Part shown: positions 1,255-36,921 of the stretch, piece by piece
Layout of the letters: each line of letters begins with the position of its first letter
Numbering within the stretch: position 1 is the stretch's first letter
Source: Candidatus Woykebacteria bacterium
GTDB lineage: Bacteria; Patescibacteriota; Microgenomatia; Woykebacterales; RBG-16-39-9b
Length of the DNA stretch: 43,628 nt
Direction of reading: 5' to 3'
Assembly: GCA_040876345.1 (NCBI GenBank)
Contig: JBBDPM010000006.1
Span: 136,803-180,430 of the forward strand
Translations under genes and position numbers: made by a program
The notes under the pieces: generated by a model
Told to the model about the DNA's origin: nothing
The model's database searches: none
The model's input: only the letters and a program-made list of their open reading frames with translations

Positions 1255-1365
1255 TAACTCCTCTGGACTAGAAATCTTGCTTATCACCTCTACCCTGTGG
1301 TAAGTTAGCAAAACCGATCTTAGGATCCACCCACCCATGAACGGAGGATTGGAAGGAGGAAACCG

Positions 1366-2190
1366 GTGGGAACAACGCCAGAAAATGAACCGCAACTCTC
1401 CCCTCTTAAAGAAGGCGGTGAAAAAATAAGCCTCGGATCAGAGCACACACGTAGGATGAGGGCGCTTCTTCTGGAAGAGCACGACACCCAACTCGACATC
1501 TGCTTTTCTCTATGGCCACTTGCCGGCCGTGGGCAGGCGTCCCGACAAATGCTACGAGAACGGCTCAAAGTCACCAGAGCACGGGCCCTACCTATCATTC
1601 AAATAGTGTGGGAGCACCCCGAACTCGAAGCAGAGCTTCCGGAGGCAGAGCAGGTTTTCTACAAAGATCTGAGGGAACGGTTCGGATCATTCGAAAAGGT
1701 CCGCCAACGCGCTTACCGATGGAGGGCTGGGAACCCAAGAAGTGGTACCTTTCAAGCTAACCAACCCTCACCCACAATCGACCTGTCGCCGCAAGAAGGG
1801 TTGGATCAAAGAAGATCCAAAGTCCCACTAACACTGCAATCAGTGGGCTTACCGTCAACAAACCATGTTCTTGCCCACCTTCTGAAAGCAGCTCTGCTCT
1901 ACGGCGAACGCAACCGCTATCGTCTGGCTGCTAAATTCGCCGAATCGATCCAAAACATCAGCCGCCACTTTTCGGAAGTGCTGGAGATGTACCAAAGAGC
2001 CTGCGAACTCCCAAAGGAAGAATGGGACGAGGTTCTTGGTCCTGAGGTTGCCTCGGCCTGCCGTGAGATAAAGGCAAGGTGGGAAGATGCAAGCTTGGAG
2101 GACATTATTCGAAGCGGTCCAACAACAAGCAGCCCTATCATCGACCCCGAAACGCTAAAGGTGTGTCACGATAGGCCAAAAGAAGGGTGA
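1366..2190 (+). CDS. GC-elevated hypothetical protein with sigma-70 region-4-like HTH segment (islet gene P1)
   Basis: GTG start lies 5-6 nt after GGAAGGAGGA (1351-1360), and the ORF is visibly GC-richer than its neighbours. There is a possible TTGCTT-18-TAAGTT promoter at 1277-1306. The segment LWPLAGRGQASRQMLRERLKVTRARALPII aligns with RFGLDGQGRRSVRQIKDEAKVSSTSVRTYI of the ORF at 32272. Confidence 0.55.
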   Translation: MGTTPENEPQLSPLKEGGEKISLGSEHTRRMRALLLEEHDTQLDICFSLWPLAGRGQASRQMLRERLKVTRARALPIIQIVWEHPELEAELPEAEQVFYKDLRERFGSFEKVRQRAYRWRAGNPRSGTFQANQPSPTIDLSPQEGLDQRRSKVPLTLQSVGLPSTNHVLAHLLKAALLYGERNRYRLAAKFAESIQNISRHFSEVLEMYQRACELPKEEWDEVLGPEVASACREIKARWEDASLEDIIRSGPTTSSPIIDPETLKVCHDRPKEG

Positions 2191-2225
2191 GGAGGCTTTG
2201 TTGTCTCCCCACCCTTCCACTTCTC
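2185..2225 (+). terminator. hairpin after P1 stop
   Basis: GGGTG-a-GGAG (2185-2194) pairs with CTCC-c-CACCC (2205-2214) around a 10-nt loop. The following T/C-rich tail is a weak U-tract. Confidence 0.4.
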
Positions 2226-2370
2226 TAGTCTGCTAAAACAAACTTATGGACTACTTGACTTAATATTTTGTATTCAGACTAATTAGTTCCAAATTCGTAT
2301 TAATTCGTGTATTTTGATATAATGCTCGCATTACATGACAAGCATTGTATGCTTGGCATATAATTTTTAC

Positions 2371-3621: not shown

Positions 3622-6600
3622 ATGCTCATCCCTGCCCAAGGAGTTGAATCAGGATTTACCACACAAACAGAATCTAGTAGTGGGGTTGGTCCCTCCTTCC
3701 CCTCCCCAGAAACTGCTCATCAATCCCCTCCTCAAACACCAGATAATGAAGACCAGATCCCCCATCAAGATAGAGGCCAAGGGGGAGATACTAAAAAAGG
3801 GGCAGATAGCCCCAATAGTGGTGGCCAAGGAGGACAAGAAATACAGTCTAAACCAGTTGAAGATGGTGGGCAAGTAGATGATGGTATTCTATCATTAACC
3901 CCAGCGGAAGAAGCAACGCCAGAAGTTATAACACCAGCTGCCCCAACACCAATAACAGAGTCCGCATCGCAAATCGAACTTGACTTGCTTGAGTATGATA
4001 CTAAATTACGAAACCACATTGGAGTGGGTAGAAGTAAGTGGAGAAAAGCAAGCGCTGCGCAACGATTAGCCTACTTAAGAGGTAGTGGGAAACAACCAGA
4101 AGGGTTGTTGGAGAGACTGGAAGGAACATCGGGCCACCGTGGACAAGCTCCCCAAGCCTCTAGGAGAGCTCCGTCTGGGTCAGCACCTACCCCGACTGAA
4201 GTACCCAACGCTGGGACAGAAGATAATTTTACACAACCAGAAGTGGGAGCTGGTGCTAAACTTCCAGATGTACCATCAGAAACCCAGCCTGCTACGGAAG
4301 CGGTAGCTGCTGTGTCCCCACCCCAAGGTCCTGAAACTCCCGCCCCACTTCCTCTTCCAACGGGAAGACGCGGGGATGATCTTGCAGAAGAAAGAGGTTA
4401 CCAACGCACCGGTCCACCAGTCGCTCGTAGCCGCCCAGCTGCCCGACAAACACCGCCAGCAGTTTCTGCGGGCGATGAGGCAGTAGTTCAACCCGATGAC
4501 TCCGAAGAACCAAATCCCGCAATCACAGAACCTGTTAAAAGTCCAGAACAAACAGCAACATCTGAGGTACCACCTGGGGCAGTGGTAATTGAAGCAGTAC
4601 CAAGAGGAGTTGCTGATTTCTGGAGTCTAGTTCACGAAGGGAAAGCGAAGGTGCCGTCGGGCAAAGTAGCCAAGCGAATCTCTGAAGACGTTGTAAAACT
4701 GGGAATCATGAGTCCGGAGGAGGTGGATCAGAAGCAAAGAACTATGGAAGGTAAAAGAGCAATACTCGCCGCTTGGCATAAAGAACTTGGCAATAGAATA
4801 CCGATACTAAAAGAAACACCAGATACCACCGTCAGGACTGACAGCGCACCTCCACCACCCAAAGGCGATGATAGCTCTGTAGCCCCAGCCATCGAAGAGT
4901 CAGCTAAAAGGCTTGGTTTAACAAATGGGCAATTCCTTGCTCTCCCTGAGGAAGAAAGAGTAAGACTCTTAAGTGAATCTCACTTAGCACGGGCAAAAGA
5001 ACAAGCAGATAGGCAACTAAGAATCGTTCGAGAAGAGGCAGAAACTGCTCTTAAGAGATTAAACGACGCCTTTGAAGAAAATCTACCTCCTACCGCGGCA
5101 GCATCAGCGGAAGTAGGGCCCAAAACTGCAGAACTTGGTCCTAGGCAGTTTAGTACTCTATCTAAAGCTTTAGATAAATACAACTCTGACGATCCTTCGA
5201 CTTTACCAGATTTAACTAATAGTGGTCTTAAGGGAGCTGTTCTAAAAGCCCGCCGCCAACTCGGAATTAAGCCCAACCCAACCAACCCCGCAGAAGTGTT
5301 GAATGAGCTTAAAGAGGCATTTAATAATGGTAGAATCAAGGGAAAAGCACCAATCCCTAGAGAATCAACACCCCGCCCTCCACAAAACCAAGGGCAAAAG
5401 GAATCAGACCAAGAGGCCAAACAAGGTTTTGCCGAGCGAATTACAAAGGGCGCCGCGAAAAAAGTCCGAGCTGGAGCCGAAAAATACTCTGGATTCGTAG
5501 CCGGCAGAGAAGAATCACTGCGCGCTAAGGCAGAGGCGTCTGAAAGTAGGATAAAGAGATTCCTCTTTAATTCAGCCGCTAATTTTTTAAATAATTACCA
5601 TGCAAGAGATAAGGAGGCCCCTTGGTATTACGGTGCTTTTGTAGTTAGCGGCGGCGCAAATGCCGCTCTTACTATCTTTGCTCCCTTCACTGCTGTCGGC
5701 CCTGGTCGTTTCCTGCGCTCCTTAGCTATAACCGGGACCACCCACGCCCTAGGTGCTGGTGTAAACCTAGGCAGAAGAGTTGTTATGGGTAGCGTTCTTT
5801 CGGGTTATATTGACTCTGATGAAGGTGCTAAAAACTTTAATTTTAGATCTGCAAAAGACGCTCGAAACTACTATGTAACTCAGTTTAATGAGGCGTTCCT
5901 TCTTAAAAGAATTGGTGAGGAAGAATTTGGTGCTCGTCTGCAGCAACTTTCCCAGGAAGTTTTCTTAAGGTTTGGTAAAACTGCTTTTGGCCATAATTTC
6001 TCGAAGGAGCTTGAAGAAGGAGGCCTTAGGCTTCTAAGAGAACGGATGATGGGCACCTTGGACCGCTACCATCAGTACAATAACATTGTTCGTAGTGTTG
6101 CGGCAGGCATGAAAGCAGGTGCTACAGTGACAACCATCGGCTTTGGAATCGACCAAGGATTATCAAAGGGTTTTGAAAAGTTAATGGGGCTTATTCACCA
6201 CCCCACGGCAGAAGTGCCCGGTCAGCCAGGACTTCCTTCTGGGCCCCCAGATTATTCCAAGGAGCTTCCGCTTGCTCCGCCAGAAGGTTCCAATGTTAAC
6301 CCGGAAGATTGGCGCCGTTTTGCTTCGGCCTACAACTCTTTAACTCCAGACCGTCGAGATGATTTTATTGAAATCATGGGTGACCCAAAAAGAGTTCAGG
6401 ATCTTATTGACTGGTCCGAAGCACACAATGTGGTTACTCCCCCAACGCCGGAAGCAATACCAATTGAGTTTCAGAGATTTCTGGACAACCAAAATAATTT
6501 TACTGAATTAGACATAAACAGAGGCGATACAGTTGGAAAACTAGCCTTTAACAGAGGGTATGATAATTTTTGGGATGCAAATCCAACGAGTGCGGCGGCT

Positions 6601-6858
6601 AAAGGTGCAACCATATTGGAAAATGAGGGGCTGTTAAGAACTTCAGCGGAAAATGCAGCAAGACAAGGATATGCTGCTGCCGACATGCCAACACATCAAG
6701 AGTTGATAGGTTTGATGAGGCAAGCAGCTGGTGGTAATGAAGCAGCCGATGCCGAACTAGACAGGGTCTTGCATTGGATTCCTCAAGGCCGTAAATTACG
6801 GTTATTAAAACTTGGATCGACTAGCGAAATTATTAAGGAGCTAGATTTAGCAGCTTGA
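3622..6858 (+). CDS. giant (1078 aa) protein: long Pro/Glu/Ala/Gln-rich disordered N-half, central hydrophobic hairpin, globular C-terminal part
   Basis: A single long ORF. Hydrophobic segments WYYGAFVVSGGANAALTIFAPFTAV and SLAITGTTHALGAGVNLG lie near residues 640-720. The C-terminal stretch ELDINRGDTVGKLAFNRGY is weakly LysM-like. I recognise no catalytic motif. Confidence 0.7.
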   Translation: MLIPAQGVESGFTTQTESSSGVGPSFPSPETAHQSPPQTPDNEDQIPHQDRGQGGDTKKGADSPNSGGQGGQEIQSKPVEDGGQVDDGILSLTPAEEATPEVITPAAPTPITESASQIELDLLEYDTKLRNHIGVGRSKWRKASAAQRLAYLRGSGKQPEGLLERLEGTSGHRGQAPQASRRAPSGSAPTPTEVPNAGTEDNFTQPEVGAGAKLPDVPSETQPATEAVAAVSPPQGPETPAPLPLPTGRRGDDLAEERGYQRTGPPVARSRPAARQTPPAVSAGDEAVVQPDDSEEPNPAITEPVKSPEQTATSEVPPGAVVIEAVPRGVADFWSLVHEGKAKVPSGKVAKRISEDVVKLGIMSPEEVDQKQRTMEGKRAILAAWHKELGNRIPILKETPDTTVRTDSAPPPPKGDDSSVAPAIEESAKRLGLTNGQFLALPEEERVRLLSESHLARAKEQADRQLRIVREEAETALKRLNDAFEENLPPTAAASAEVGPKTAELGPRQFSTLSKALDKYNSDDPSTLPDLTNSGLKGAVLKARRQLGIKPNPTNPAEVLNELKEAFNNGRIKGKAPIPRESTPRPPQNQGQKESDQEAKQGFAERITKGAAKKVRAGAEKYSGFVAGREESLRAKAEASESRIKRFLFNSAANFLNNYHARDKEAPWYYGAFVVSGGANAALTIFAPFTAVGPGRFLRSLAITGTTHALGAGVNLGRRVVMGSVLSGYIDSDEGAKNFNFRSAKDARNYYVTQFNEAFLLKRIGEEEFGARLQQLSQEVFLRFGKTAFGHNFSKELEEGGLRLLRERMMGTLDRYHQYNNIVRSVAAGMKAGATVTTIGFGIDQGLSKGFEKLMGLIHHPTAEVPGQPGLPSGPPDYSKELPLAPPEGSNVNPEDWRRFASAYNSLTPDRRDDFIEIMGDPKRVQDLIDWSEAHNVVTPPTPEAIPIEFQRFLDNQNNFTELDINRGDTVGKLAFNRGYDNFWDANPTSAAAKGATILENEGLLRTSAENAARQGYAAADMPTHQELIGLMRQAAGGNEAADAELDRVLHWIPQGRKLRLLKLGSTSEIIKELDLAA

Positions 6859-6859
6859 T

Positions 6860-7177
6860 ATGTCGGACTTAAACCAAGTAATAACAATTCTTCGCGAAAA
6901 CAAAGTCGCTGATGATGAAATCGCTCAGTTTGTTGTGAATTCTAACAATTTAATAGCTGAAAAAATGATGGTGGAAATTACCATGGCACTAGATGAGAGA
7001 GATGCTTCTGAGATTGATAAGATGAGCGATGCACAAGGCCAAGAGGAAGTTTATAAGCGTTTCAGGGAAAAAACTGGGAAAGATATTGAGGATGTGCGAT
7101 CTGAAGTAGTCGACGCTTTTGTCTCTGGTTTTCTCACCAAATACCACCAAGATAAACTCCAAGGAAAAAAAGAATAA
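6860..7177 (+). CDS. small acidic helical protein (105 aa), unknown function
   Basis: The ATG lies 1 nt after the giant gene stop, suggesting translational coupling. Composition is helical and acidic, with no TM segment. Confidence 0.55.
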   Translation: MSDLNQVITILRENKVADDEIAQFVVNSNNLIAEKMMVEITMALDERDASEIDKMSDAQGQEEVYKRFREKTGKDIEDVRSEVVDAFVSGFLTKYHQDKLQGKKE

Positions 7178-7181
7178 TATC

Positions 7182-8126
7182 TCATCTAATAGTTAGCCGT
7201 TTAAACACTGTGTAGAAAAACGCCCCAAAACCAAACCTGCCAAAACTCTTTTCGTTAACCTTATCAAAAGCATCTATTCCCCACTTTGCATCCAAAGCTT
7301 CCCGAAACTCGGCAACCCTTCCGTCGAAGTAAGCCCCATCAGCAATATTTGGCCCAACCACACGAGCCATTACTCCATAAGCTAATGCTCTTGGGAGGTA
7401 AAATGGGTTCATGATATTATAAATAAAACCTTCTTGGGACGCTGCCTGCCTGGCGTAATATTCAGTTGCCCCCTCATTAATAGGCGTATCCATAGCCCCT
7501 GCAGATGCTAAATGTAAATCTTCATGATACATGGTTCGCTTTACTAAAAATCTTGGCAATCCCCCATTAATAACTGTCTCAAAACTACCAAACGCCCACC
7601 CGGCTACCGGAAGTGGTAGAGTTTTAAGTATACTTACTAATCTCTCATTCATGACGTGAAATCTCTGTTTTAAGGCAAACTCATTAAAAGAATCTCGATT
7701 TGCTATAAAAGTGGTATCCTCAGCACCATCCAGTCTTTCGTTAATGTTGTAACCAGGAAAAGTTTCTTGCAGGTTACTTATCACCACACTTTGCATATCT
7801 TTTATTTCATCGATAGTATAACTATTAGACTTCTTTAATCCCAAATAGTTCATTCTACTTTCGTGTTCTTCTCTCGGGTTCAGTTGGTTACTTCCTTGTG
7901 CCGATGTAGACTGGTGAGTCTCCCGCTCCGCAACACTCCGACTCAGGTCAACTCGAATCTCTGCAATTCTTTCTTTATCTTCTCTCCTTTGCTTTTCACC
8001 ACTCTCTCTCAATTGTTCCTGTTTTCTATCACGACCTATGTGTTCCTGAACACTTCCAGTTTTTTCTTTCACAGTAATATTTTCCGGTTGAGACTCAAAT
8101 TTTGGGATTTCAGGGCTACCTTGCAT
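7182..8126 (-). CDS. putative gluzincin-type zinc metallopeptidase with disordered N-terminus
   Basis: HExxH motif (MYHEDLHLA) is followed 11 residues later by INEGATEYYA, a thermolysin-like position for the third ligand Glu. The first ~100 aa are charged and low-complexity. The ATG abuts the stop of the upstream ATPase (TAAATG). Confidence 0.6.
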   Translation of the reverse strand: MQGSPEIPKFESQPENITVKEKTGSVQEHIGRDRKQEQLRESGEKQRREDKERIAEIRVDLSRSVAERETHQSTSAQGSNQLNPREEHESRMNYLGLKKSNSYTIDEIKDMQSVVISNLQETFPGYNINERLDGAEDTTFIANRDSFNEFALKQRFHVMNERLVSILKTLPLPVAGWAFGSFETVINGGLPRFLVKRTMYHEDLHLASAGAMDTPINEGATEYYARQAASQEGFIYNIMNPFYLPRALAYGVMARVVGPNIADGAYFDGRVAEFREALDAKWGIDAFDKVNEKSFGRFGFGAFFYTVFKRLTIR

Positions 8127-10670
8127 TTACTGTCCTCCTGTTTGAGGATTTGGTGCAGGCGGGGCTGGCTGCACTGGTTGAGGAAAAGAAGACGAAGTGT
8201 TGGGGCTAATCTGCGACGGATAGTTTGGTTCTGGTGGAGCCCCTAGAACTGCATTTTTCTGCTCAGAAGGAACCAAGGGTTCATTTAAACCAGCTCTCTC
8301 TTCGATTTCGGCTTCTACAATCTCGCGATCACGACCATAGCGCAAGCGAGATAATTCCTTTATGGAACTTGCCACTTGCTGATCCCTTTTTGCCGCTTGC
8401 ATTACAGGCCAATCAGTCTGCATGGAAAAAGGCACGGTTGGCTGCCCGGTTACTAAAAGCCTCATGTAGGCTTGGCCCACGGGATTATTTATTAAATCTT
8501 GTTTTTTGAAGACAGGGTCGAACTGATGCTCAAGATACTCGGCATCATCCACGCCCACTCTGAAAGCCGAAAGTGTCCCCACGTTTCCAAAAACCGCTTC
8601 CCGTATATTTTCCTCCCGAATTTGGGCGATAAATTGGTTGGCGACTGTCAAATTAAGATGGTATTTACGTGCTTCAGACAAAATCTGCGCAAAATCTGGA
8701 GTGGCAAAGTTTTGGAATTCATCTACGTAAAGGTAGAAGTCCCTTCGCTGCTCCTCCGGCACATCCACTCTACTCATAGCCGCGACCATTAGTCTTGGAA
8801 CCAGCACCAAACCAAGAAAGTTAGAATTTTCCTCTCCTATCTTCCCTTTCGAAAGATCCACTAGCAAAATCTTACCCTCATCCATCACCCTCCGAAAGTC
8901 AAAGGCAGATTTACCCTGACCAATAATATTGCGCATCAGTTTATCGGTAACAAATCGATCAAACTTGGACACAAAATACCCCATTACTTCACTCTTGTGA
9001 AAAGCTGTTGTTTGGGCCATTTCATCAGTCCAGTAACGACGCACCAAAGGATCATTAAGCTTTGGCAGTTTTTCCTTGACAAAATTTGGATCTGTCAGAA
9101 GCCTCAGCACTTCAACCAAAGTGTTCTCCGGCTCACACATGGCAGTTAGCATTACGTTTCGGATAGCCCTCTCTAAGCGCGGGCCCATTATTCCGGTGCG
9201 ACGCGGATCGTACAATTTGTAGAGAAGATTGATAAAGTTGTTAACAATCATGTGTTTTTGCTCTTCAGTCTTGGCTTCAATAATATTTATCCCCAGTGGT
9301 CTTTCCGTATCCCCAGCATCAAAATAAATAACATCTTCGGCTCTCTCGGGTGGAACTTGCTGCAAGATATCTTCAATGGCCGGCCCATGAGGGTCAATAA
9401 AACAGATCCCTCTGCCCTCTTTAATGTCTTGAATAGCCATAAATTTCATATACTCACTTTTTCCAGTACCAGTCTGCCCGATTACATACATGTGACGACG
9501 CCGGTCATCCGGTAAAATATGCACCTTTGTCTCGACCCCGCGGAAAACGCTCTTACCCAAATAAAGACCCTGCTGAGGAACGGCAACTGGCGCAGCGGCT
9601 TTTTTGGAAAGAAGCCAATTGATATTTGGTGTAACGACGTTTTTATTTGGTAAATGAAAAATGGTTGCAAGCTCGGTGGAGGTGAGAACCATTTTACCAA
9701 AAACAGCCGGCACCATTTTGTTAACAAAGTGCTTAAGTGATAACTTTTTTGTAAGGGTCCAGGGCCAACGGCGAGGCCGGAAACCGTTACCCACTGGATC
9801 ACTAAATTGGCCAAAAGCCCCAACCATATTTTGAATATAATGAGAGGCGTTAACCTTACCGTTTGCCGAGACCACAAACCGAATAACAGTTTCAAACCCA
9901 GGCTTTGAGCATTTTTCTTCAATTTTTTTGTAAGGATCCCCGGTGATAGACTCGGTTCTTGCTGCTGGTTGCTCGGCAGCTGCCTGCTGTGAATTTTGCG
10001 ATGGCAAGTTAAACGGAGTAATTATCCCCAGAGCCCCACCCGTTTTAACGGTCTGGGATTTATGAATATATTTAAAACCCTTACTCTGCCAAGCGCTTCC
10101 TGCTGGCGCAAACAAAATTTGTAAGACGGCCGCTTCCCCTTGCTCTAATTTGGACAAAGCGGTCGTTATTGCGTTTAAAGAATCGATATTTTCGCCCATT
10201 TCTTTAAACCGCAATATTGGTTTGTAGACGGCCGAGCGCTGACTAAACTCAACAATATCTACATATTTATCGGGACGAAAGATGGAATACTCTGGTACCG
10301 GTTCAATCTCAGCTTCCGGATAATATGAGTTAATTTGTTTTTCGACTAGTTTTTGAAGGGCCAGGGGTGTGGTTACGTAAAAATTAATCTGACCGTCCTT
10401 AACAACAATTTCAAAGCCAATGTGATCTTGCCCCTTCATCAACCCGTGAATACCGTAGCGGAAAAGAGAATGGAAGGCGGTAAACATAGTTTCGGCTACC
10501 TCAATTTTAGTTTCGTTGTAGCGAGGAACCCGCACCAAAAGCTGACTGTAATATAGAGAGCGTTTCTCCCTTTGGGAATAACGAGACCAAAATATGGCCC
10601 CCAAGACTGCTCCGATGATTACTAAAATCGTGGTTAATACAAATATGAAAAGAAAGATAATTGCTAACAA
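8127..10670 (-). CDS. TraD/VirD4/TraG-family (T4SS coupling-protein-like) membrane ATPase
   Basis: N-terminal TM helix IIFLFIFVLTTILVIIGAVLGAIFW; Walker A VIGQTGTGKSEY; Walker B YLYVDEFQNF; SEARKYHLNLTVANQ resembles the TraG-D_C region. The tail is P/Q-rich. TTG start lies 8-9 nt after a GGAGG inside the upstream gene end. Confidence 0.8.
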   Translation of the reverse strand: MLAIIFLFIFVLTTILVIIGAVLGAIFWSRYSQREKRSLYYSQLLVRVPRYNETKIEVAETMFTAFHSLFRYGIHGLMKGQDHIGFEIVVKDGQINFYVTTPLALQKLVEKQINSYYPEAEIEPVPEYSIFRPDKYVDIVEFSQRSAVYKPILRFKEMGENIDSLNAITTALSKLEQGEAAVLQILFAPAGSAWQSKGFKYIHKSQTVKTGGALGIITPFNLPSQNSQQAAAEQPAARTESITGDPYKKIEEKCSKPGFETVIRFVVSANGKVNASHYIQNMVGAFGQFSDPVGNGFRPRRWPWTLTKKLSLKHFVNKMVPAVFGKMVLTSTELATIFHLPNKNVVTPNINWLLSKKAAAPVAVPQQGLYLGKSVFRGVETKVHILPDDRRRHMYVIGQTGTGKSEYMKFMAIQDIKEGRGICFIDPHGPAIEDILQQVPPERAEDVIYFDAGDTERPLGINIIEAKTEEQKHMIVNNFINLLYKLYDPRRTGIMGPRLERAIRNVMLTAMCEPENTLVEVLRLLTDPNFVKEKLPKLNDPLVRRYWTDEMAQTTAFHKSEVMGYFVSKFDRFVTDKLMRNIIGQGKSAFDFRRVMDEGKILLVDLSKGKIGEENSNFLGLVLVPRLMVAAMSRVDVPEEQRRDFYLYVDEFQNFATPDFAQILSEARKYHLNLTVANQFIAQIREENIREAVFGNVGTLSAFRVGVDDAEYLEHQFDPVFKKQDLINNPVGQAYMRLLVTGQPTVPFSMQTDWPVMQAAKRDQQVASSIKELSRLRYGRDREIVEAEIEERAGLNEPLVPSEQKNAVLGAPPEPNYPSQISPNTSSSFPQPVQPAPPAPNPQTGGQ

Positions 10671-10671
10671 A

Positions 10672-11229
10672 CTAATAACCTCCGCCAGGGAACTTTTCCA
10701 AACGCCTTGATATCAATCTCATCTGCTCTTCTCTTATATTCTTGTACGTTTGAACAGGCACTGTATAAGGAGAGATTTCGTTAATTAATTTCTGTCCAGG
10801 CTGCGGCCAACCTGGTGGATTAGGAATTTGAGTACTTGGGACAACAGTTTCCGCGATTTGACCATTTGCTGTTTGTTGGGTTGTTTCATGTCCTGGCCTT
10901 AAACCCTCAGTTTGACGCATCTCGGACTGTTTTTGTTCTTGCACTGGAAGTCTTTGAGCTTCCTGGACAAGACTAGAACCCCCTATCTGACCTTCTGTCT
11001 GACCTTCTGAATGTGTAAGGTTTGGATGTGTTTTTTCTTCTGGTTGAGGATTCGATATTTCCTTAACCCTCTTCTCTCCTGGTCTTGGATAATCTAAAGG
11101 TTCAGGCACTGGGGATCGTCCCTCACCAAATGGTTGACCCTGATTTTGAAAATCCTGAGCACTCTCAACCTCAGGAATTAAATGGGTTTCAGGAATAGAA
11201 GTAGTACCCTCTTGGGCAGGGATATTCAT
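10672..11229 (-). CDS. Pro/Gln/Glu-rich intrinsically disordered protein (185 aa)
   Basis: First gene of the minus-strand operon, with low-complexity composition. The N-terminus MNIPAQEG matches MLIPAQGV of the giant protein. Only the last ~40 aa look ordered (YTVPVQTYKNIREEQMRLISRRLEKF). Confidence 0.6.
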   Translation of the reverse strand: MNIPAQEGTTSIPETHLIPEVESAQDFQNQGQPFGEGRSPVPEPLDYPRPGEKRVKEISNPQPEEKTHPNLTHSEGQTEGQIGGSSLVQEAQRLPVQEQKQSEMRQTEGLRPGHETTQQTANGQIAETVVPSTQIPNPPGWPQPGQKLINEISPYTVPVQTYKNIREEQMRLISRRLEKFPGGGY

Positions 11230-11333: not shown

Positions 11334-11669
11334 GTGAAAAAAAGCTCTTGGTTGGACATGATCGTGACGGAGGTTGAGGCTGAGGTTTGGAGATTGCGGT
11401 TCGACCCAGATCGCCTGTTAACCCAATCTCAAATAGCAGCTGAGACCGGTCATAAATCGGTAGGAAACCAACTAACCTCGGCTTTGAGAAGGCTCCAAGC
11501 ACGAGGTCCTGGTCTTCCACCAAGCTCGGAGGAGCAAGAGCTTATCGATCTGGCATTGCTTGCTACCGGGGCGAAGAATTTGGAACAAGCGTATCAGACC
11601 AGAAACGAGCAGGTAAGACGCCTCTCACTGGCAACCAGGCACAGGATCTTCCACGATTCGCAGCGCTGA
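11334..11669 (+). CDS. small GC-elevated HTH protein (islet gene P2), candidate divergent regulator
   Basis: GTG at 11334 is preceded by AAGGAG (11321-11326), which forms the loop of a 6-bp hairpin GGGAGA/TCTCCC (11315-11332). An alternative in-frame ATG lies at 11295. The HTH-like segment is LLTQSQIAAETGHKSVGNQLTSALRRLQ. A hairpin AGCGCTGA/TCAGCGCT (11662-11690) spans the stop. Confidence 0.5.
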   Translation: MKKSSWLDMIVTEVEAEVWRLRFDPDRLLTQSQIAAETGHKSVGNQLTSALRRLQARGPGLPPSSEEQELIDLALLATGAKNLEQAYQTRNEQVRRLSLATRHRIFHDSQR

Positions 11670-11695
11670 GAGTAGCCCCCTTTCAGCGCTAATTC

Positions 11696-20757: not shown

Positions 20758-21606
20758 TCACCATCTTTTTCCCTTGTTCCTTCGGACGAATTCTGTACCA
20801 ACTGGCTTACCCTCCACAAGCTGAGCTAGAATTGCTTGTTGAGTTGCTTCCAGTAAGTACACTCTCCCCACCCCACCCTCTAACGCTTGGATGCAAGCCT
20901 CAATCTTCGGTATCATCCCACCTTGGGCTATCCCCGTAGAAAGTAGTCTTTTGGCCTGATTGAGATTCAGGAGATGAACCAGCGAGCGCGGCGCAAGTGG
21001 ATTAATCATAACAGCTGGCACATCTGTAAGCTGCAGAAAACAATCAGCTTTCAGAGCGATTGCGACAGCTGCAGCTGCCTCATCGGCGTTGATGTTGTAG
21101 TCCTGTTTCCAAATCCAACCGACCGGCGAGACAACGGCAATCTCCCCTCGTGTTAGGGAACTGCGAAGAGAAGCACCCCTCACCTTCATCACATGACCAA
21201 CCAAGCCTAGGCTTTCATCCTCGTGGCGTTTGGCAGTGATGAGTTTATGGTGAGGAACGAAGCTGCGTGCTTTCCCACCCAAACCCCGGATTTGATCAAC
21301 CAAAATTTGGTTGGTTCTTTCCAGAGTTTTTGTGATAGCCACCATCATCTCAGCAGTGGTCCCCCGAAGTCCATTTTGAAACGATACGTGCAGGCCTGCT
21401 TTCTTGAGATCAGTGGTAATGGCCGCGCCTCCGCCGTGAACCAGCACAACCTGAACACCTCCCCTGGCAAAAAGCACAAGAACCTCAAGTACTTTCTGCA
21501 TGGTGGGAGATCCCAAAGCGCTACCGCCATACTTAGCGACGATTACCTTTCCCCGATTGGATCCTATGAAGGCTTGGGCTTTCCGCGTCGGATCTTCCCC
21601 TGACAT
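20758..21606 (-). CDS. argB: acetylglutamate kinase (amino-acid kinase family)
   Basis: Motifs VAKYGGSAL, VLVHGGGAAI, FQNGLRGT, YNINADEAAAAVA and GGMIPKIEA. ATG at 21606 lies 6 nt after AAGGAG; an alternative GTG is at 21609. The gene is visibly GC-richer than purB and ctpA on either side. Confidence 0.85.
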   Translation of the reverse strand: MSGEDPTRKAQAFIGSNRGKVIVAKYGGSALGSPTMQKVLEVLVLFARGGVQVVLVHGGGAAITTDLKKAGLHVSFQNGLRGTTAEMMVAITKTLERTNQILVDQIRGLGGKARSFVPHHKLITAKRHEDESLGLVGHVMKVRGASLRSSLTRGEIAVVSPVGWIWKQDYNINADEAAAAVAIALKADCFLQLTDVPAVMINPLAPRSLVHLLNLNQAKRLLSTGIAQGGMIPKIEACIQALEGGVGRVYLLEATQQAILAQLVEGKPVGTEFVRRNKGKRW

Positions 21607-21720
21607 CACTCTCTCCTTTATCTAGGACGAGGTGTACAACCGGGTAGCCGCTAGACCTTTTAGCTTTATCATAAACTATAAGATTATGTCAATTGGATGG
21701 GGGTATTTGAGAAAAATAAA

Positions 21721-26238: not shown

Positions 26239-26327
26239 GTGTAAATTCTATTTCGCATCGTGCTTAATTTAATTCGAAGGGAGTATATCATAAGCTTGCA
26301 ATATAGTTCAATACCTACACGTTATGA

Positions 26328-26356
26328 TTGAAATTTAATCCAACTAATGTTATTAT
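26328..26356 (+). promoter_or_regulatory. promoter of islet gene P3
   Basis: TTGAAA (26328-26333), 17-nt spacer, TATTAT (26351-26356). The architecture matches the promoter at 32207-32235. Confidence 0.45.
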
Positions 26357-26412
26357 AGGCCGATTAACTGGGCCGGCCTGTATTCACGTAAGGGAATCGA
26401 AAGGAGCGCACC

Positions 26413-26745
26413 ATGCGAAAACTCAACTTGAGGCAACATCTGCAATTCGTCAAGGGAGTACCAGCGAGCATCGGTCGAACCAGACGGAGGCGTGTCCTCA
26501 GAAGCATTGATGGCTATCCCACTGCCATCGGCTACATGGATGCCTTCTGCCACCAGCACTGCGGGGCTCAACATCACGCGAACACACGCCAAGCGGTCCT
26601 TGCCTGTATCGCGAAGACACTCGGGATCAACGAGACGAAGGTCAAAGGGATTGAGAGCAGGGTCAACAGGACTCGGTTCGACTGGCGCCCTCTTACCCTG
26701 TGTCAGGAGTTGCTTCTGCTGCCCAACAAATCGACCGCGGACTGA
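26413..26745 (+). CDS. small GC-elevated protein with HTH-like segment (islet gene P3)
   Basis: The ATG lies 7 nt after AAGGAG. By my hand count third-codon positions are about 70% G/C in this frame, higher than first positions. The HTH-like segment is RQAVLACIAKTLGINETKVKGIESRV. The strand call is uncertain because a longer antisense ORF exists. Confidence 0.45.
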   Translation: MRKLNLRQHLQFVKGVPASIGRTRRRRVLRSIDGYPTAIGYMDAFCHQHCGAQHHANTRQAVLACIAKTLGINETKVKGIESRVNRTRFDWRPLTLCQELLLLPNKSTAD

Positions 26746-26824
26746 CTTCAGCGAAGAACCGGCCCAGGCACAAGTGAGAAGAGATCGCTGGGTCGAGGAT
26801 TTGCCCACCTCGACCCCTCGGTCC

Positions 26825-27895
26825 TCACACATTGAACTTGAATAGAGCTCCATCACCATCCTGAAAAACGTAATCTTTTCCTTCCATCCTCACGAGACCC
26901 TTTTCTCTGGCCTTTTGCCAACCACCCGCTTCAACTAGTTTTTCCCAATTTATAACTTCGGCTTTGATAAAGCCCCGTTCAAAATCAGTATGAATTGTGC
27001 CCGCTGCTTGGGGCGCTTTTGTCCTGTCAGGTATAGTCCAACCGCGGACTTCTTTTTCACCAGCCGTGAAAAAGGTAATTAAACCCAAAAGTTCGTAGGA
27101 CGCCTGAATTAGTTTTTCCAACCCGCTTTTTTTCTCCCCAAGATCCTTCAAATACTCTTTTTGCTCTTCTTCCGAAAGTGCCGAAAGCTCGGCTTCAATC
27201 TTAGCGCAGAGATAGACACTTGGGGAAGATTCTTCCGGAAATTTGGCTAATTTCTCTGAATCCTTTAAATCTTCCTCAGCAACATTAAAAACGTAAATAA
27301 CTGGCTTATTCGTAATCAGCGGCAGTTTTTTGGCAAATTCAGCAAACTTCTCGCTTACCGCCACATCTTTAGAAAAAGTTTCTTCCTCGAGCCCATCCTT
27401 GATTTTTTCCAAGACCAAAACTTCCTCTTTTGCCTCCTTAGAAATTTTTGCTTCTCTTTCTTTACCATCAATAAGTTTATTTACAGTTTCCAAATCGGCA
27501 AGCATTAATTCAATATTAATAGTCTCGACGTCACTCTTGGGATCAAGCCCTGATCGCACAACATCAGGGTCTTCAAAAGCTCGCACAACATGAGCAATAG
27601 CGTCTACCTCACGGATATGAGAAAGAAAACGGTTTCCAAGCCCTTCCCCCTTGTGGGCATCTTTGACTAGACCAGCGATGTCAACAAACTCGACCGTGGC
27701 CGCAATGATTTTTTCGGTACTCACCACTTTGGCAAGTTTTTCTAAACGAAAGTCTGGCACCTCAACCACACCAACATTTGGATCAATTGTGGTAAATGGA
27801 TAATTTGCGCTCTGGGCTACCTGCTTTTTTAGCAGGGCGTTAAAAAGCGTAGATTTACCAACGTTAGGCAAACCAACAATTCCGATTTTGAGCAC
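26825..27895 (-). CDS. ychF: redox-regulated ATPase/GTP-binding protein YchF
   Basis: GIVGLPNVGKSTLFNAL, a coiled-coil insert and a C-terminal TGS-like domain (FFTAGEKEVRGWTI..GTIHTDFERGFI). Confidence 0.92.
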   Translation of the reverse strand: MLKIGIVGLPNVGKSTLFNALLKKQVAQSANYPFTTIDPNVGVVEVPDFRLEKLAKVVSTEKIIAATVEFVDIAGLVKDAHKGEGLGNRFLSHIREVDAIAHVVRAFEDPDVVRSGLDPKSDVETINIELMLADLETVNKLIDGKEREAKISKEAKEEVLVLEKIKDGLEEETFSKDVAVSEKFAEFAKKLPLITNKPVIYVFNVAEEDLKDSEKLAKFPEESSPSVYLCAKIEAELSALSEEEQKEYLKDLGEKKSGLEKLIQASYELLGLITFFTAGEKEVRGWTIPDRTKAPQAAGTIHTDFERGFIKAEVINWEKLVEAGGWQKAREKGLVRMEGKDYVFQDGDGALFKFNV

Positions 27896-32206: not shown

Positions 32207-32235
32207 TTGAACACCCAACCTGCATCTGCTATTAT
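32207..32235 (+). promoter_or_regulatory. promoter of islet gene P4
   Basis: TTGAAC (32207-32212), 17-nt spacer, TATTAT (32230-32235). Confidence 0.5.
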
Positions 32236-32271: not shown

Positions 32272-32730
32272 ATGGAGGAAACGGCTAAGACGTGTCGCAA
32301 CCCAAGGTGTGGTAAGCAAAGCCCTGCCGAAGCGCAACACTGCACTCATTGCGGGCTCTTGCTTAGCGGTAAGGTAACACGGCTCTGGGATAGTGATATC
32401 CTTGCGATCGTGGATGGCGCCGATTTTACCCCGCTTATCGAAGCTATATGGGAACCGGAGTGGCTCCAGCCGGATAGGCCCCGCTCGGTTTCCGCAGACC
32501 TAATCCGTTGGGCTTTTTCGGCTTTCCTAACCGAAAGGCAACAACAGGTGATGATCAGAAGGTTCGGTCTGGACGGGCAGGGTCGAAGGAGTGTCCGGCA
32601 GATCAAGGACGAGGCTAAGGTTAGCTCCACCTCAGTGCGCACATACATAACCTCATCGCTTATGAAACTGCGCTACCTTCGCACCCGTCTCGTCCTTTCA
32701 GGGAAGGAACCAAAACCCAAAAAATCGTGA
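32272..32730 (+). CDS. zinc-ribbon plus sigma-70 region-4-like HTH protein (islet gene P4)
   Basis: The ATG lies 4-5 nt after GGAAGGAGGG. The Zn ribbon is CRNPRCG...CTHCG. The segment LTERQQQVMIRRFGLDGQGRRSVRQIKDEAKVSSTSVRTYITSSLMKLR matches the sigma-70 region 4.2 pattern (RFGLDDG..T..EIG..FGVTRERIRQIE..AL.KLR). The ORF is GC-elevated. Confidence 0.65.
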   Translation: MEETAKTCRNPRCGKQSPAEAQHCTHCGLLLSGKVTRLWDSDILAIVDGADFTPLIEAIWEPEWLQPDRPRSVSADLIRWAFSAFLTERQQQVMIRRFGLDGQGRRSVRQIKDEAKVSSTSVRTYITSSLMKLRYLRTRLVLSGKEPKPKKS

Positions 32731-32752
32731 GCGGAATTTTTCGGCAAGCCAA

Positions 32753-32785
32753 GGGCCTCGAAGCCATCGAGGTCCTTTCGCTTTT
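32753..32785 (+). terminator. intrinsic terminator of P4
   Basis: A 9-bp stem (32753-32761 / 32767-32775, core CCTCGA/TCGAGG) with a 5-nt loop, followed by TTTCGCTTTT. Confidence 0.6.
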
Positions 32786-32820
32786 AGTTAAGTAGATTAC
32801 AATTGTGATAAAATTTAGCT

Positions 32821-33241
32821 ATGCAGAAAACTAAAACTTCACCAGACACTTACATTACCTCTCTCCCCGAACCGAAGCGAGATGATATAAAAAAGCTCGA
32901 CAGTCTGATTTCAAAAATAATGAGTGGCCACTCACGGGTAATGTGGGAAGGGGTTTTCTGGAGTGGTAGTGAGCAGAAAATCATTGGTTATGGCGATCTA
33001 ACTTACGTTAACTCAAAAAAGGAAAACATCGAGTGGTTTCTGATTGGTCTCACTTTGCAGAAAAACTATATAAGCGTCTATGTGAATGCGGTAGATAAAA
33101 AAACTCAACCTTGTGGACTATAAGGAAAAACTTGGCAAAGCAAAGGTGGGCCGAAGCAGCATTGGGTTTAACTCATTGCTAGATATAAATTTGGATGTGC
33201 TCGCAGAACTAGTCAAAAAAGCCAAAGGACTAGCGTCCTAA
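32821..33241 (+). pseudogene. DUF1801 (YdhG-like) gene with a frameshift in an A7 run
   Basis: Frame 1 stops at 33121-33123. Removing one A from A7 (33097-33103) restores ..DKKLNLVDYKEKLGKAKVGRSSIGFNSLLDINLDVLAELVKKA, which aligns with the intact paralogue at 38385-38837. Confidence 0.6.
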
Positions 33242-33520: not shown

Positions 33521-33563
33521 CTTTTTCCTCCCTCAAAAATCTGGTTCTGTTAGAATATAATTT

Positions 33564-33911
33564 ATGGTTACCTGGGTTTTGAGGATTGAAGGTTTGGCAG
33601 TACTACTTGCTTCTCTTTACTTTTACAATTATCTAAGTGGTGGTTGGTTAGTTTTCATTATCCTCATTTTAGCGCCAGATATCTCCATGATCGGTTATTT
33701 AAAAGATAAAATGCTAGGATCGATCACTTACAATCTAGCCCACAACTATATTCTTGCTTTGGTGATTATTTTCACTGGGATTTTCGCTGGTAACGAATTT
33801 TGGACTTCACTTGGGCTCATCCTTTCCGCCCACGTTGGCGCAGATAGATTTTTGGGTTTTGGGCTAAAGTATCCCACCAACTTCAAAGACACACATTTAC
33901 TAAAACTCTAA
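33564..33911 (+). CDS. DUF4260-like small integral membrane protein
   Basis: LRIEGLAVLLASLYFY..ILILAPDISMIGYL..YNLAHNY pattern. TAGAAT lies 7 nt upstream of the ATG. Confidence 0.6.
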   Translation: MVTWVLRIEGLAVLLASLYFYNYLSGGWLVFIILILAPDISMIGYLKDKMLGSITYNLAHNYILALVIIFTGIFAGNEFWTSLGLILSAHVGADRFLGFGLKYPTNFKDTHLLKL

Positions 33912-33952: not shown

Positions 33953-33991
33953 TTGACAAATAATTATACATGTTATAACATTGTAATAACA
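33953..33991 (+). promoter_or_regulatory. TA promoter with tandem palindromic operator-like sites
   Basis: TTGACA (33953-33958) is followed by -10-like TATAAC/TAACAT (33974-33981). The perfect palindrome TGTTATAACA (33971-33980) is immediately followed by the near-repeat TGTAATAACA (33982-33991). Confidence 0.5.
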
Positions 33992-34194
33992 TGATTAGAA
34001 GAGTTATTAAAAGCGGCAATTCATTTGCTGTTACTATCCCCCAAAATATAGTTAAAGAAGGCAACATCCAAACGGGTGACTCTATCAATGTCACTTTTGA
34101 GCCGGTTTTTGCTGCCGACAAGGAAATTCACGATCTTACCCAAAAGTTAATTAAAGAATATCGTCCTGCCTTGGAAGAACTTGCTTCAAAGTGA
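33991..34194 (+). CDS. AbrB/SpoVT-fold antitoxin
   Basis: RRVIKSGNSFAVTIPQNIVKEGNIQTGDSINVTFEP is a SpoVT-AbrB domain pattern. The stop overlaps the toxin start (GTGA). Confidence 0.8.
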   Translation: MIRRVIKSGNSFAVTIPQNIVKEGNIQTGDSINVTFEPVFAADKEIHDLTQKLIKEYRPALEELASK

Positions 34195-34568
34195 TCTATC
34201 TTTCAGCCCAGAATGTTATCCAAATCCACTATGAGTTAGTTGATGCGACCGGTGGCTCTCAAGGTTTGCGGAACCTTGGACTTTTGGAATCGGCTCTCGC
34301 TCGCCCTCAACAAACCTTTGATGGTGAAGACCTCTACTCAACACTGGAGATAAAAGCAGCCGCCCTTGTCCACTCCTTGCTATTAAATCATATGTTCGTG
34401 GATGGTAACAAACGAACTGCGACTGTGGTAATGATAGAATTCTTAACATTAAACGGGAAGAAATTTAAAGCAGCGAACAAAGAAATCGTCGATTTTGCTC
34501 TTTGGGTGGAAAATCAAAAACCCTCTCTTGAAGAAATTTCCTCATGGATCCAAAAGCATACTAAATAG
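34191..34568 (+). CDS. doc: Doc (death-on-curing) Fic-family toxin
   Basis: Fic/Doc motif HMFVDGNKRTA; LLESALARPQQTF is typical of Doc. Confidence 0.85.
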   Translation: MIYLSAQNVIQIHYELVDATGGSQGLRNLGLLESALARPQQTFDGEDLYSTLEIKAAALVHSLLLNHMFVDGNKRTATVVMIEFLTLNGKKFKAANKEIVDFALWVENQKPSLEEISSWIQKHTK

Positions 34569-36491: not shown

Positions 36492-36544
36492 AAAAAATAA
36501 CGAAGGGCCGCGACGCAGAGAACGAATCCTCTGTGCTGCGACCC
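36492..36544 (-). terminator. strong intrinsic terminator of the high-GC gene
   Basis: In the minus-strand RNA a 16-position stem (36505-36520 / 36529-36544) forms 14 pairs, two of them G-U that would be mismatches on the plus strand. It is followed by UUCGUUAUUUUUUGG. Confidence 0.7.
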
Positions 36545-36578
36545 TTGGTGTACGCGCTTCGCCTGAGACCTTGTGGAT

Positions 36579-36890
36579 CTAGGCGGGCGCGGTGGTGGCG
36601 GCCAGGTTGTGCACCGTGACGCTGCCTTCGGTTTGGTCGATGAACTCCTGGAGCTCCGCTTCGGTGAGCGCCCAGAGCCGGCAGGCGTCGATCTTACCGA
36701 TGGTCATGATGGTGGCGTCGTCGAGCGTGGTTCCCAGCTTGAACAGCTGGTCGAGGTTGCCGCTGCAGGTCGCGACGACGGACCGGCGGCCCGTGGCGCG
36801 TTCGAAGACCGTAGTGAACCGCTCCCTGATCTCGCCGTCGCTGGCGCCATCGATCGGACCGTCCTCTTGGTCCCACTTCCTATGGAGCAT
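36579..36890 (-). CDS. hypothetical 103-aa protein with extreme GC3 (foreign-looking)
   Basis: By hand count about nine in ten codons of this frame end in G or C, which identifies the coding frame among the overlapping ORFs. The composition changes abruptly at both ends. The gene has its own terminator but no obvious SD. Confidence 0.55.
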   Translation of the reverse strand: MLHRKWDQEDGPIDGASDGEIRERFTTVFERATGRRSVVATCSGNLDQLFKLGTTLDDATIMTIGKIDACRLWALTEAELQEFIDQTEGSVTVHNLAATTAPA

Positions 36891-36921
36891 TTTTCTAGAA
36901 TAATTTGTTATAATTAAAATA

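Follow-up and report, generated by a model that had tools for sequence, protein, structure and literature searches.

To our knowledge, recognisable transcription regulators are very scarce among the Patescibacteria, and the small ORFans of this group are for the most part dismissed as noise or foreign DNA. The described systems that come closest to the locus considered here are islands and ORFan cassettes acquired by horizontal gene transfer (HGT), the small helix-turn-helix (HTH) regulators, region 4 of the sigma-70 factors, and Streptomyces, in which bldA and TTA codons provide rare-codon control of regulator genes. We found no account in the literature of GC-rich regulators in bacteria of the Candidate Phyla Radiation (CPR), or of a dichotomy in these bacteria between leaderless genes and genes led by a Shine-Dalgarno (SD) site. 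The locus lies in a 43,628-nt stretch from a Candidatus Woykebacteria bacterium (GCA_040876345.1, contig JBBDPM010000006.1, positions 136,803 to 180,430), and we refer to this whole stretch as the window. The window has a GC content of 0.429, its DNA is also contained in contig JBBEDR010000006.1 of GCA_040881185.1, and its DEAD-box helicase has its closest matches in metagenome-assembled genomes of Woykebacteria, Woesebacteria, Daviesbacteria and Levyibacteria. Just upstream of hisS is a GC-rich gene, P1, and we put at roughly 0.6 the probability that P1 is an old, fast-evolving and vertically inherited gene for a probable transcription regulator, with a GC elevation and an SD site that are maintained and do not reflect a recent foreign origin.

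The interval 1277-2214 is a genuine single-gene unit, comprised of a strong SD site, an open reading frame (ORF) of 274 codons and a terminator hairpin. A leave-one-out codon model preferred the P1 frame over all five alternatives. The parts of the unit, and the promoter that follows it, are listed here.

1351..1360, plus strand: SD site of P1, GGAAGGAGGA, 5 nt upstream of the GTG start; duplex with the anti-SD, -11.7 kcal/mol
1366..2190, plus strand: P1, a 274-aa protein of the LWP-module family; a gene in both the NCBI and the Logan calls
1426..1725, plus strand: N-terminal helical LWP module, aa 21-120; from jackhmmer, alignment A2 and AlphaFold2 (AF2), with a predicted local distance difference test score (pLDDT) >90
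1846..2115, plus strand: C-terminal helical domain, aa 161-250; from alignments A1 and A4 and AF2 (pLDDT 82-96)
2182..2217, plus strand: GC-rich hairpin over the P1 stop codon, a likely terminator (-25.5 kcal/mol; z -4.0 against shuffled sequences)
2335-2364, plus strand: promoter of hisS, downstream of the P1 hairpin (11/12 positions matched)

Relatives of the P1 protein are few and remote. A word-based homologue search returned the query itself as the sole match, and an exhaustive phmmer search of 1.84 billion representative proteins recovered 7 remote relatives (E 3.8e-30 to 6e-4), for a family of 8 clusters (P0001 and P0004-P0010) among those proteins. The family is built on a module of ~100 residues with a conserved LWP[D/E]E motif, which occurs in one to three copies per protein and of which jackhmmer delineated 12 complete copies (domain E 1e-24 to 1e-49). 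Residues L35, W50, P51, R66, L75, L91 and F106 are kept in the module; in alignment A2, L35, R66 and L91 are invariant and W50 and P51 nearly so. The P1-type members carry, in addition, a linker and a ~90-residue C-terminal domain that are absent from the two-module forms, and the longer members of the family carry an N-terminal coiled coil. Pfam gave no match for P1 (E up to 1) or for the 12 rows of alignment A2 (E up to 10), no sequence relatives of the family were found in NCBIfam or PHROG, and a comparison of the family profile with PDB sequences yielded no relative, only spurious TPR matches. The family is undescribed and new to the databases searched, and its members have so far been found only in Patescibacteria.

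With the 12-row alignment as input, AF2 predicted both P1 domains at pLDDT >90, and both are all-helical in the model; prediction from the single sequence was uninformative (pLDDT 45). Each domain is modelled as a three-helix core followed by a short turn and then a long Arg-rich helix, and a disordered linker connects the two domains. The core of the C-terminal domain is predicted to be a helix, a three-residue turn and a helix (residues 184-191 and 195-214). A winged-helix assignment of the LWP module to the OmpR/PhoB class (Trans_reg_C) was considered and rejected, as neither Pfam nor Foldseek gave a match and the AF2 model is all-helical and has no wing.

The position of the gene is as distinctive as its product. 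The slot upstream of hisS is shared by four other lineages, in two of which a sigma-70 gene lies directly upstream of the family member. In the related locus L018, the order DnaB, LactB, a GlucodextranB-like gene, DUF5666, P1 orthologue and HisS places the orthologue in the same slot as in the window; the encoded protein (P0004) is full-length and 34-35% identical to P1, and the flanking proteins are 50-80% identical. In loci L022-24 and L025-26, the order is a sigma-70 gene (with regions 1.2, 2, 3 and 4), the family member, HisS, L31 and RF1, and in L022 two more genes, for GerE and for another sigma-70 factor, separate the family member from HisS. In a further locus (L112), HisS again comes after the family member. 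Paralogues with two modules (926-1840 of L109 and 181-1239 of L111) are located between a divergent msrA and the sodN-sodX pair, which encodes a Ni superoxide dismutase and its peptidase, and this setting hints at a role for the two-module members in the regulation of oxidative-stress genes. Since the neighbours of family genes include genes for sigma factors, GerE, sodN and hisS, and given the fold class of the models, the context suggests that the P1 family functions in transcription regulation, possibly working with sigma. P1 itself would have been inherited vertically and held in the slot just upstream of hisS, and it would act as a DNA-binding or sigma-associated transcription regulator.

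The composition of P1 has been conserved along with its position. Genes of the family have a GC content of 0.48-0.54 and a GC content at third codon positions (GC3) of 0.47-0.56, compared with ~0.37-0.45 and 0.28-0.46 in the flanking genes. GC elevation accompanied by a GGAGG-type SD site is present in all seven lineages, and a strong SD site precedes each member examined. At four-fold sites of conserved residues, the window genome and L018 are 0.30-0.38 identical, with 0.27-0.29 expected by chance. Synonymous sites are thus near saturation while P1 is still GC-elevated, and a neutral foreign composition should have decayed by now, which argues against a recent import of P1. We also rejected P1 as a recently acquired island on the grounds that no relative with the slot lacks the gene and that its GC is elevated in every one of them. 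The initial annotation of the window had offered two accounts of its GC-rich genes, and the first of these, that they are kept at a distinct composition, is borne out for P1 by the six other lineages, in which its orthologues and paralogues are all GC-elevated and SD-led despite near-saturated synonymous divergence.

The way in which GC is raised is informative as to the cause. Usage of TTC rises from 0.22 to 0.57 and of ATC from 0.25 to 0.57, and usage of TTA falls from 0.24 to 0.04. The shift is located in the weak and mixed codon boxes, where TTC, ATC, TAC, AAC, CTG, TCG, AGC and ACC are up and TTA has collapsed, and a preference for C- and G-ending codons in weak boxes was seen in each place where we measured it, namely the window, L022 and L025. 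The GCN, GGN and CCN boxes showed no change in P1, in P2 (a second GC-rich gene of the window, described below), in members of the P1 family or in the sigma genes, and the ribosomal-protein genes and the gene for EF-P did not display the shift. Such a selective shift argues against both a donor that was simply GC-richer and GC-biased gene conversion, and points to a P1 composition shaped by selection at the codon level or against AT-rich runs.

Gene conversion deserves a closer look, as a neutral bias at recombination-prone, fast-evolving loci could in principle maintain the GC elevation. P1 orthologues do diverge faster than their neighbours (34% identity, against 50-80% for flanking genes), and GC is raised in the untranslated regions (UTRs) as well as in the coding sequence. 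Biased conversion, however, should raise GC at all synonymous sites, and in P1, P2, the P1 family and the sigma genes the GCN, GGN, CCN and CGN boxes show no rise in GC3, which makes conversion a rather improbable explanation. Selection on P1 is most likely tied to a separate, SD-dependent expression mode of regulator genes. The sigma genes of L022, L025 and L004 are likewise GC-elevated, as are the neighbouring genes of GerE and AsnC type, and most of them are SD-led. In the genome of the window, a gene for an AsnC/Lrp-type ligand domain located ~6.3 kb to the left of the window (L015, 3298-3618, minus strand) has a GC content of 0.523 and a GC3 of 0.589.

Several points weigh against this reading of P1. 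The association between GC3 and SD sites, in which 7 of 11 high-GC3 genes were SD-led and 19 of 108 others (119 genes, five loci; Fisher p 0.002), takes each orthologue as a separate data point. The GC-elevated set is not a pure class of regulators, since enzymes belong to it as well: argB of the window, and a CobB/SIR2 deacylase gene elsewhere in the same genome (L113, 3750-4517, minus strand) that has a local GC of ~0.54 and is adjoined by 530 nt of uncalled GC-rich DNA. TAnAAT promoter-like motifs are not depleted beyond codon usage (z -0.7), and on this value we rejected the proposal that the high GC content acts to remove -10-like TAnAAT motifs from within genes. No sigma gene adjoins P1 in the window genome or in L018. 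The P1 orthologues are 30-38% identical, and HisS proteins 57-73%, and it is possible on this account that the gene has been replaced repeatedly in place from a GC-richer pool. As to function, the term HTH-like, as applied to the P1 domains, refers to a predicted helix topology, and the alignment behind the family has little depth (8 proteins and 12 copies of the module). A Foldseek search of the P1 model against PDB and BFVD returned nothing significant, the best match being an extracytoplasmic function (ECF) sigma factor at E 1.6; among these non-significant matches, sigma factors and HTH DNA-binding proteins (such as the ParB DNA-binding domain, DtxR, MntR, BrxR, Lrp and ArdK) are over-represented.

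The SD sites of the P1 family stand out against genes that mostly have none. The housekeeping genes that surround P1 are AT-rich and for the most part leaderless in layout. Most housekeeping genes in the window lack an SD site (e.g., the regions 2335-2371 before hisS, 32805-32821, 33550-33564 and 36905-36922), and the same is true in L018, L022 and L025. TAnAAT hexamers resembling a -10 box were found 6-11 nt before the start codon in 28 of 118 genes, where ~8 are expected, which is the layout of leaderless genes. This accords with a statement in the initial annotation that many native genes have no SD site, and the sequence layout suggests that leaderless mRNAs are widespread in this clade of Microgenomates. 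One may imagine a two-tier system of expression in the clade. Leaderless AT-rich genes would serve housekeeping functions, and a conserved class of SD-led regulators (sigma factors, the LWP-module family, and small proteins of HTH or region-4-only type), recoded toward C- and G-ending codons in weak boxes, would be translated, and perhaps stabilized as mRNA, separately. The LWP proteins would then be new sigma-associated factors. We regard this wider scheme as tentative and would not give it an even chance.

P1 is one of several compositional outliers, or islets, in the window. The initial annotation had singled out four ORFs (P1 to P4) as GC-richer than their neighbours, each with a strong SD site, a GC-rich hairpin after the stop codon and promoter-like boxes of its own. 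All of these traits were found except the last, which holds for P3 and P4 (both with an extended -10 box) and fails for P1, whose boxes do not pass a promoter scan. Measured against 44 native genes (mean GC 0.415, sd 0.026; mean GC3 0.379, sd 0.037), GC and GC3 are 0.532 and 0.516 in P1 (z 4.5 and 3.7), 0.524 and 0.545 in P2 (z 4.1 and 4.5), 0.565 and 0.685 in P3 (z 5.7 and 8.3), and 0.545 and 0.588 in P4 (z 4.9 and 5.7). The SD duplexes of P1, P2, P3 and P4 have energies of -11.7, -8.2, -7.9 and -12.2 kcal/mol, where native genes average -3.0 kcal/mol, and the hairpins are more stable than shuffled sequences (z -4.0, -3.8, -2.1 and -3.2, respectively), with those of P2 and P4 being the best two terminator-like sites, each in its own half of the window. 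Two islets beyond the original four were identified at 36579-36890 (P5m) and at 20758-21609 (argB), both on the minus strand. The ORF at 3622-6858 also has a GC-rich stretch, which we attribute to amino acid composition because its GC3 is only 0.34. No similarity was found among the islets in an all-against-all comparison of their DNA.

The islet at P4 raises the question of sigma region 4, and its features are as follows.

32207..32235, plus strand: promoter-like site TTGAAC-17-TGnTATTAT upstream of P4, from the promoter scan, with an extended -10
32272..32730, plus strand: P4, a 152-aa ORFan; called as a gene by Logan and not by NCBI
32293-32352, plus strand: predicted N-terminal CxxxxC...CxxC zinc ribbon of P4; weak Pfam zinc-ribbon matches
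32512-32676, plus strand: predicted C-terminal sigma-70 region 4 of P4; profile matches
32751..32777, plus strand: terminator-like hairpin downstream of P4, a top-ranked site

The C-terminal part of P4 matches PHROG_351, a sigma factor family (E 1e-5), TIGR02997 (E 3.8e-6), and Pfam Sigma70_r4 at E 2.2e-4, where its 21.1 bits fall under the gathering score of 24.1. Region 4 of RpoS and RpoD makes up most of the top list of PDB matches, and hhalign aligned P4 with a region 4 profile of the clade's own sigma factors over 55 columns (93.5%, E 2.3e-7). Among 5.8 billion proteins the sole match of P4 was itself. P4 gave no Sigma70_r2 or Sigma70_r3 match, and with regions 2 and 3 absent it cannot be a sigma factor; on these profile matches, P4 is a predicted zinc ribbon fused to a sigma region 4, and it may act as a region 4 mimic or as an HTH regulator. 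The 65-nt stretch that follows P4 (32731-32795) folds at -24.9 kcal/mol (z -3.2).

The initial annotation had gone further and suggested that the four proteins are paralogues, one family of sigma-70 region-4-only regulators, with P1 and P4 aligning position by position over the HTH and P2 and P3 having comparable stretches. That P4 has a real region 4 speaks for this idea, as does the adjacency of sigma and GerE genes to P1-family genes in relatives, and two weak alignments point the same way: in hhalign, residues 58-84 of P3 are in register with the region 4.2 HTH (P 0.007), and the N-terminal residues 8-40 of P2 bear a weak resemblance to region 4.1/4.2, lying in register with 4.1 (P 0.09). 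The HTH-like stretches ascribed to P2 and P3 amount to these weak matches. For the P1-P4 pairing, the alignment was not above chance, and profile searches for Sigma70_r4 and HTH domains, which succeeded for P4, gave no Pfam match for P1, P2 or P3 (E up to 1). All-against-all BLASTP of the four proteins gave nothing significant; the best pair, P2 and P4, had an E of 0.05 in an 8-sequence database, and this match was gone once the true start of P2 was used. A region 4 assignment for P1 was rejected in its own right, as the family profile aligned with the clade's region 4 profile at P 0.03, spuriously, and the C-terminal domain did so at P 0.5 (hhalign). With region 4 matched significantly by P4 only, and with no significant similarity in either protein or DNA, a common family for the four proteins is highly improbable.

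P2 and P3 are short genes with the following features.

11334..11669, plus strand: P2, a 111-aa ORFan with the SD site AAAGGAG; called by NCBI and positive in the codon model
11662..11690, plus strand: terminator-like hairpin at the P2 stop codon, a top-ranked site (-17.2 kcal/mol, z -3.8)
26328..26356, plus strand: promoter-like site TTGAAA-17-TGnTATTAT upstream of P3 (10/12 positions, extended -10)
26413..26745, plus strand: P3, a candidate 110-aa ORF between ychF and rpsF (SD duplex -7.9 kcal/mol)
26790..26817, strand not assigned: 9-bp GC hairpin between the stop codons of P3 and ychF, which are convergent (z -2.1)

Neither P2 nor P3 has a Pfam, PDB or viral match, and the large protein databases were not searched with either. 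The codon shift of P2 is confined to weak boxes, as in P1. P2 is absent from the interval between hisS and rpmE in L022 and L025. That interval of the window also holds a 7.6-kb block (3622-11229) with a 1078-aa low-complexity ORFan, several other ORFans and a VirD4/TraD-like coupling ATPase gene (8127-10670, minus strand). L025 and L022 lack this block in the corresponding interval, and it may be an inserted element related to conjugation or type IV secretion.

The islet around P3 (islet 3, 26239-26824) is an insertion in the widely conserved ychF-rpsF junction, which is ~50-150 nt in most relatives, and it is here that the coding status of an islet is least certain. One possibility is that some islets, above all 26340-26830, are DNA that is non-coding or specifies a structured RNA, or are pseudogene remnants, with the ORFs as by-products of a low density of stop codons. 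In islet 3, no gene is annotated by NCBI, and the 166-aa ORF that Logan calls is on the strand opposite P3; three overlapping ORFs of at least 110 aa are present, the codon log-likelihood ratio for P3 is ambiguous as to frame, and immediately outside the window is a 1.1-kb GC-rich block that is clearly free of ORFs and folds with excess stability. Folding of islet 3, however, is close to that of shuffled sequences on its two strands (z -1.3 and -0.3), with no signal of RNA structure, and Rfam gave no match in any islet at the gathering score or even at E up to 5. A tRNA and tmRNA scan with ARAGORN was negative for every islet too, and the islets were on these results rejected as known structured RNAs. 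Within islet 3 itself, the presence of a consensus promoter, an SD site and a correctly spaced ATG favours P3 on the plus strand as the coding ORF, as does the share of C among two-fold codons that end in a pyrimidine, which is 0.72 in P3, as in the other islets, and 0.38 in the antisense ORF. P1, P2 and P4 pass the codon test and fall outside this reading. We regard a non-coding origin of some islets, above all islet 3, as unlikely.

The block outside the window is of interest on its own account. Located just to the right of the window between yqeY and corA (L113, GCA_040903525.1, contig JBBDVF010000006.1, 1190-2300), it comprises ~1.1 kb with a GC of 0.48-0.57, has no ORF >60 aa and no Rfam, tRNA or tmRNA match, and folds better than shuffled sequences on both strands (z -3.8 and -3.3), which makes it a candidate large structured RNA.

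The two islets added here differ in character from P1, and their features are these.

36579..36890, minus strand: P5m, a 103-aa ORFan without an SD site, called by NCBI on the minus strand; GC 0.657, GC3 0.894 (GC3 z 14)
36505..36545, minus strand: hairpin and U-run resembling an intrinsic terminator, downstream of P5m (-32.5 kcal/mol, z -2.8)
20758..21609, minus strand: argB, SD-led gene for acetylglutamate kinase; GC 0.514, GC3 0.489

The codon pattern and periodicity of P5m are those of a high-GC genome, and its C-terminus bears a weak resemblance to thioredoxin. P5m matched only itself among 5.8 billion proteins, and it had no match in plasmids and phages (tblastn) or in IMG/VR. The argB product matched TIGR00761 at 164.9 bits (cutoff 151.3) and also Pfam AA_kinase, and no argB homologue was found in 113 related loci. 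In a CPR genome, where biosynthetic genes are few, a lone argB is out of the ordinary, and the gene was probably acquired.

P5m and argB bring to the fore the second account in the initial annotation, in which the islets are foreign cassettes acquired repeatedly. In a fuller form of this account, they would be recent imports that have yet to ameliorate, from donors (phage, plasmid or host) of higher GC content. Atypical composition that reaches into UTRs and hairpins is consistent with such imports, as are the self-only matches of P4 and P5m, the lack of database matches for P2 and P3 within the searches noted above, the insertion of P3 into the ychF-rpsF junction, short in most relatives, the absence of P2 from the corresponding interval of L022 and L025, and the lack of an argB counterpart in related loci. 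Codon usage agrees with this for P5m, argB, P3 and P4, which are GC-shifted uniformly across all codon classes, and no homologue of these four was found in the related loci fetched. Set against these points, the slot of P1 is conserved and the gene is GC-elevated in four other lineages in spite of near-saturated synonymous sites, and the shift of P1 and P2 is limited to weak boxes, unlike that expected from a simply GC-richer donor. Neither an integrase nor flanking repeats nor donor homologues turned up for the islets, and viral, plasmid and phage matches were likewise lacking: IMG/VR scans with P1, P2, P3, P4 and P5m were all negative, and searches with P5m and P3, though not with argB, brought up neither a donor nor a homologue. 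Scans of metagenomes and genomes anchored on ychF and the DEAD-box helicase found no relative close enough to assess synteny for P2 to P5. As a general account of the islets, recent import is a possibility that we regard as doubtful. It fails for P1, whose synteny is conserved, and is plausible for P5m, argB, P3 and P4; judged by their sequences, P5m and argB look horizontally acquired, and horizontal acquisition is the simplest reading for P3 and P4 as well.

The best-supported view of the islets is that the set is heterogeneous, with a conserved class of SD-led, recoded regulator genes (P1, the sigma genes of related genomes and possibly P2) and a few foreign-looking ORFans. GC-elevated ORFans were also seen in L025, where genes for proteins of 130 and 160 aa (8185-8577 and 20817-21299, both on the minus strand; GC3 0.54 and 0.53), the first of them SD-led, are dissimilar to P2-P5; small GC-rich ORFans may be a feature of the whole clade. 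Elsewhere in the window, at 33991-34568 on the plus strand, a gene for a MazE-like antitoxin (67 aa) overlaps a Fic-domain gene (125 aa), and the two resemble a toxin-antitoxin pair by their Pfam matches.

If our reading of P1 is correct, what appeared to be a compositional island is an ancient gene with a fixed position and a link to sigma genes, and the LWP-module proteins are a candidate regulator family for the phylum. In genomes that are largely leaderless, the conserved occurrence of SD sites together with elevated GC and C-ending codons offers a testable hint that codon choice and mode of initiation mark regulators. The case of P1 is also a caution that GC outliers should not automatically be ascribed to horizontal transfer, and the analysis flags genes missed by the NCBI annotation, such as P4.

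How, then, does the locus compare with the described systems? The islets are like HGT islands and ORFan cassettes in their atypical GC and GC3, in having their own expression signals and few or no homologues, and in sitting between conserved housekeeping genes. They differ in lacking mobility genes and flanking repeats, and P1 differs further in being syntenic and compositionally distinct across a deep divergence; the limitation of the codon shift to weak boxes in P1 and P2 is another difference. The likeness to the bldA system is that a mostly regulatory class of genes carries codons that are rare in the genome, which here are C- and G-ending codons in an AT-rich genome. That system turns on one codon, whereas many are involved here, and the link to regulation in the present case is one that we infer.

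Among protein families, the comparison with sigma-70 region 4 (PF04545; RpoD and RpoS) is closest for P4, in which residues 81-135 align across all of regions 4.1 and 4.2, the HTH and the RFGL motif among them. P4 differs from group 1 and 2 sigma factors in its N-terminal zinc ribbon, in the absence of regions 2 and 3 and in scoring below the Pfam gathering threshold, and P1, P2 and P3 differ in having no significant match to region 4; for P1 the likeness is one of neighbourhood, as its family genes adjoin sigma-70 genes in relatives. With the small HTH regulators (OmpR/PhoB, LuxR/GerE and DtxR/MntR), the predicted P1 domains have in common a three-helix core and an Arg-rich long helix, and P1-family genes lie upstream of plausible targets, sodN and hisS. 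P1 differs from these regulators in that it has no significant sequence or structure match to them and no predicted beta wing, and the LWP[D/E]E motif and the tandem modules are features of the P1 family that are absent from those HTH families.

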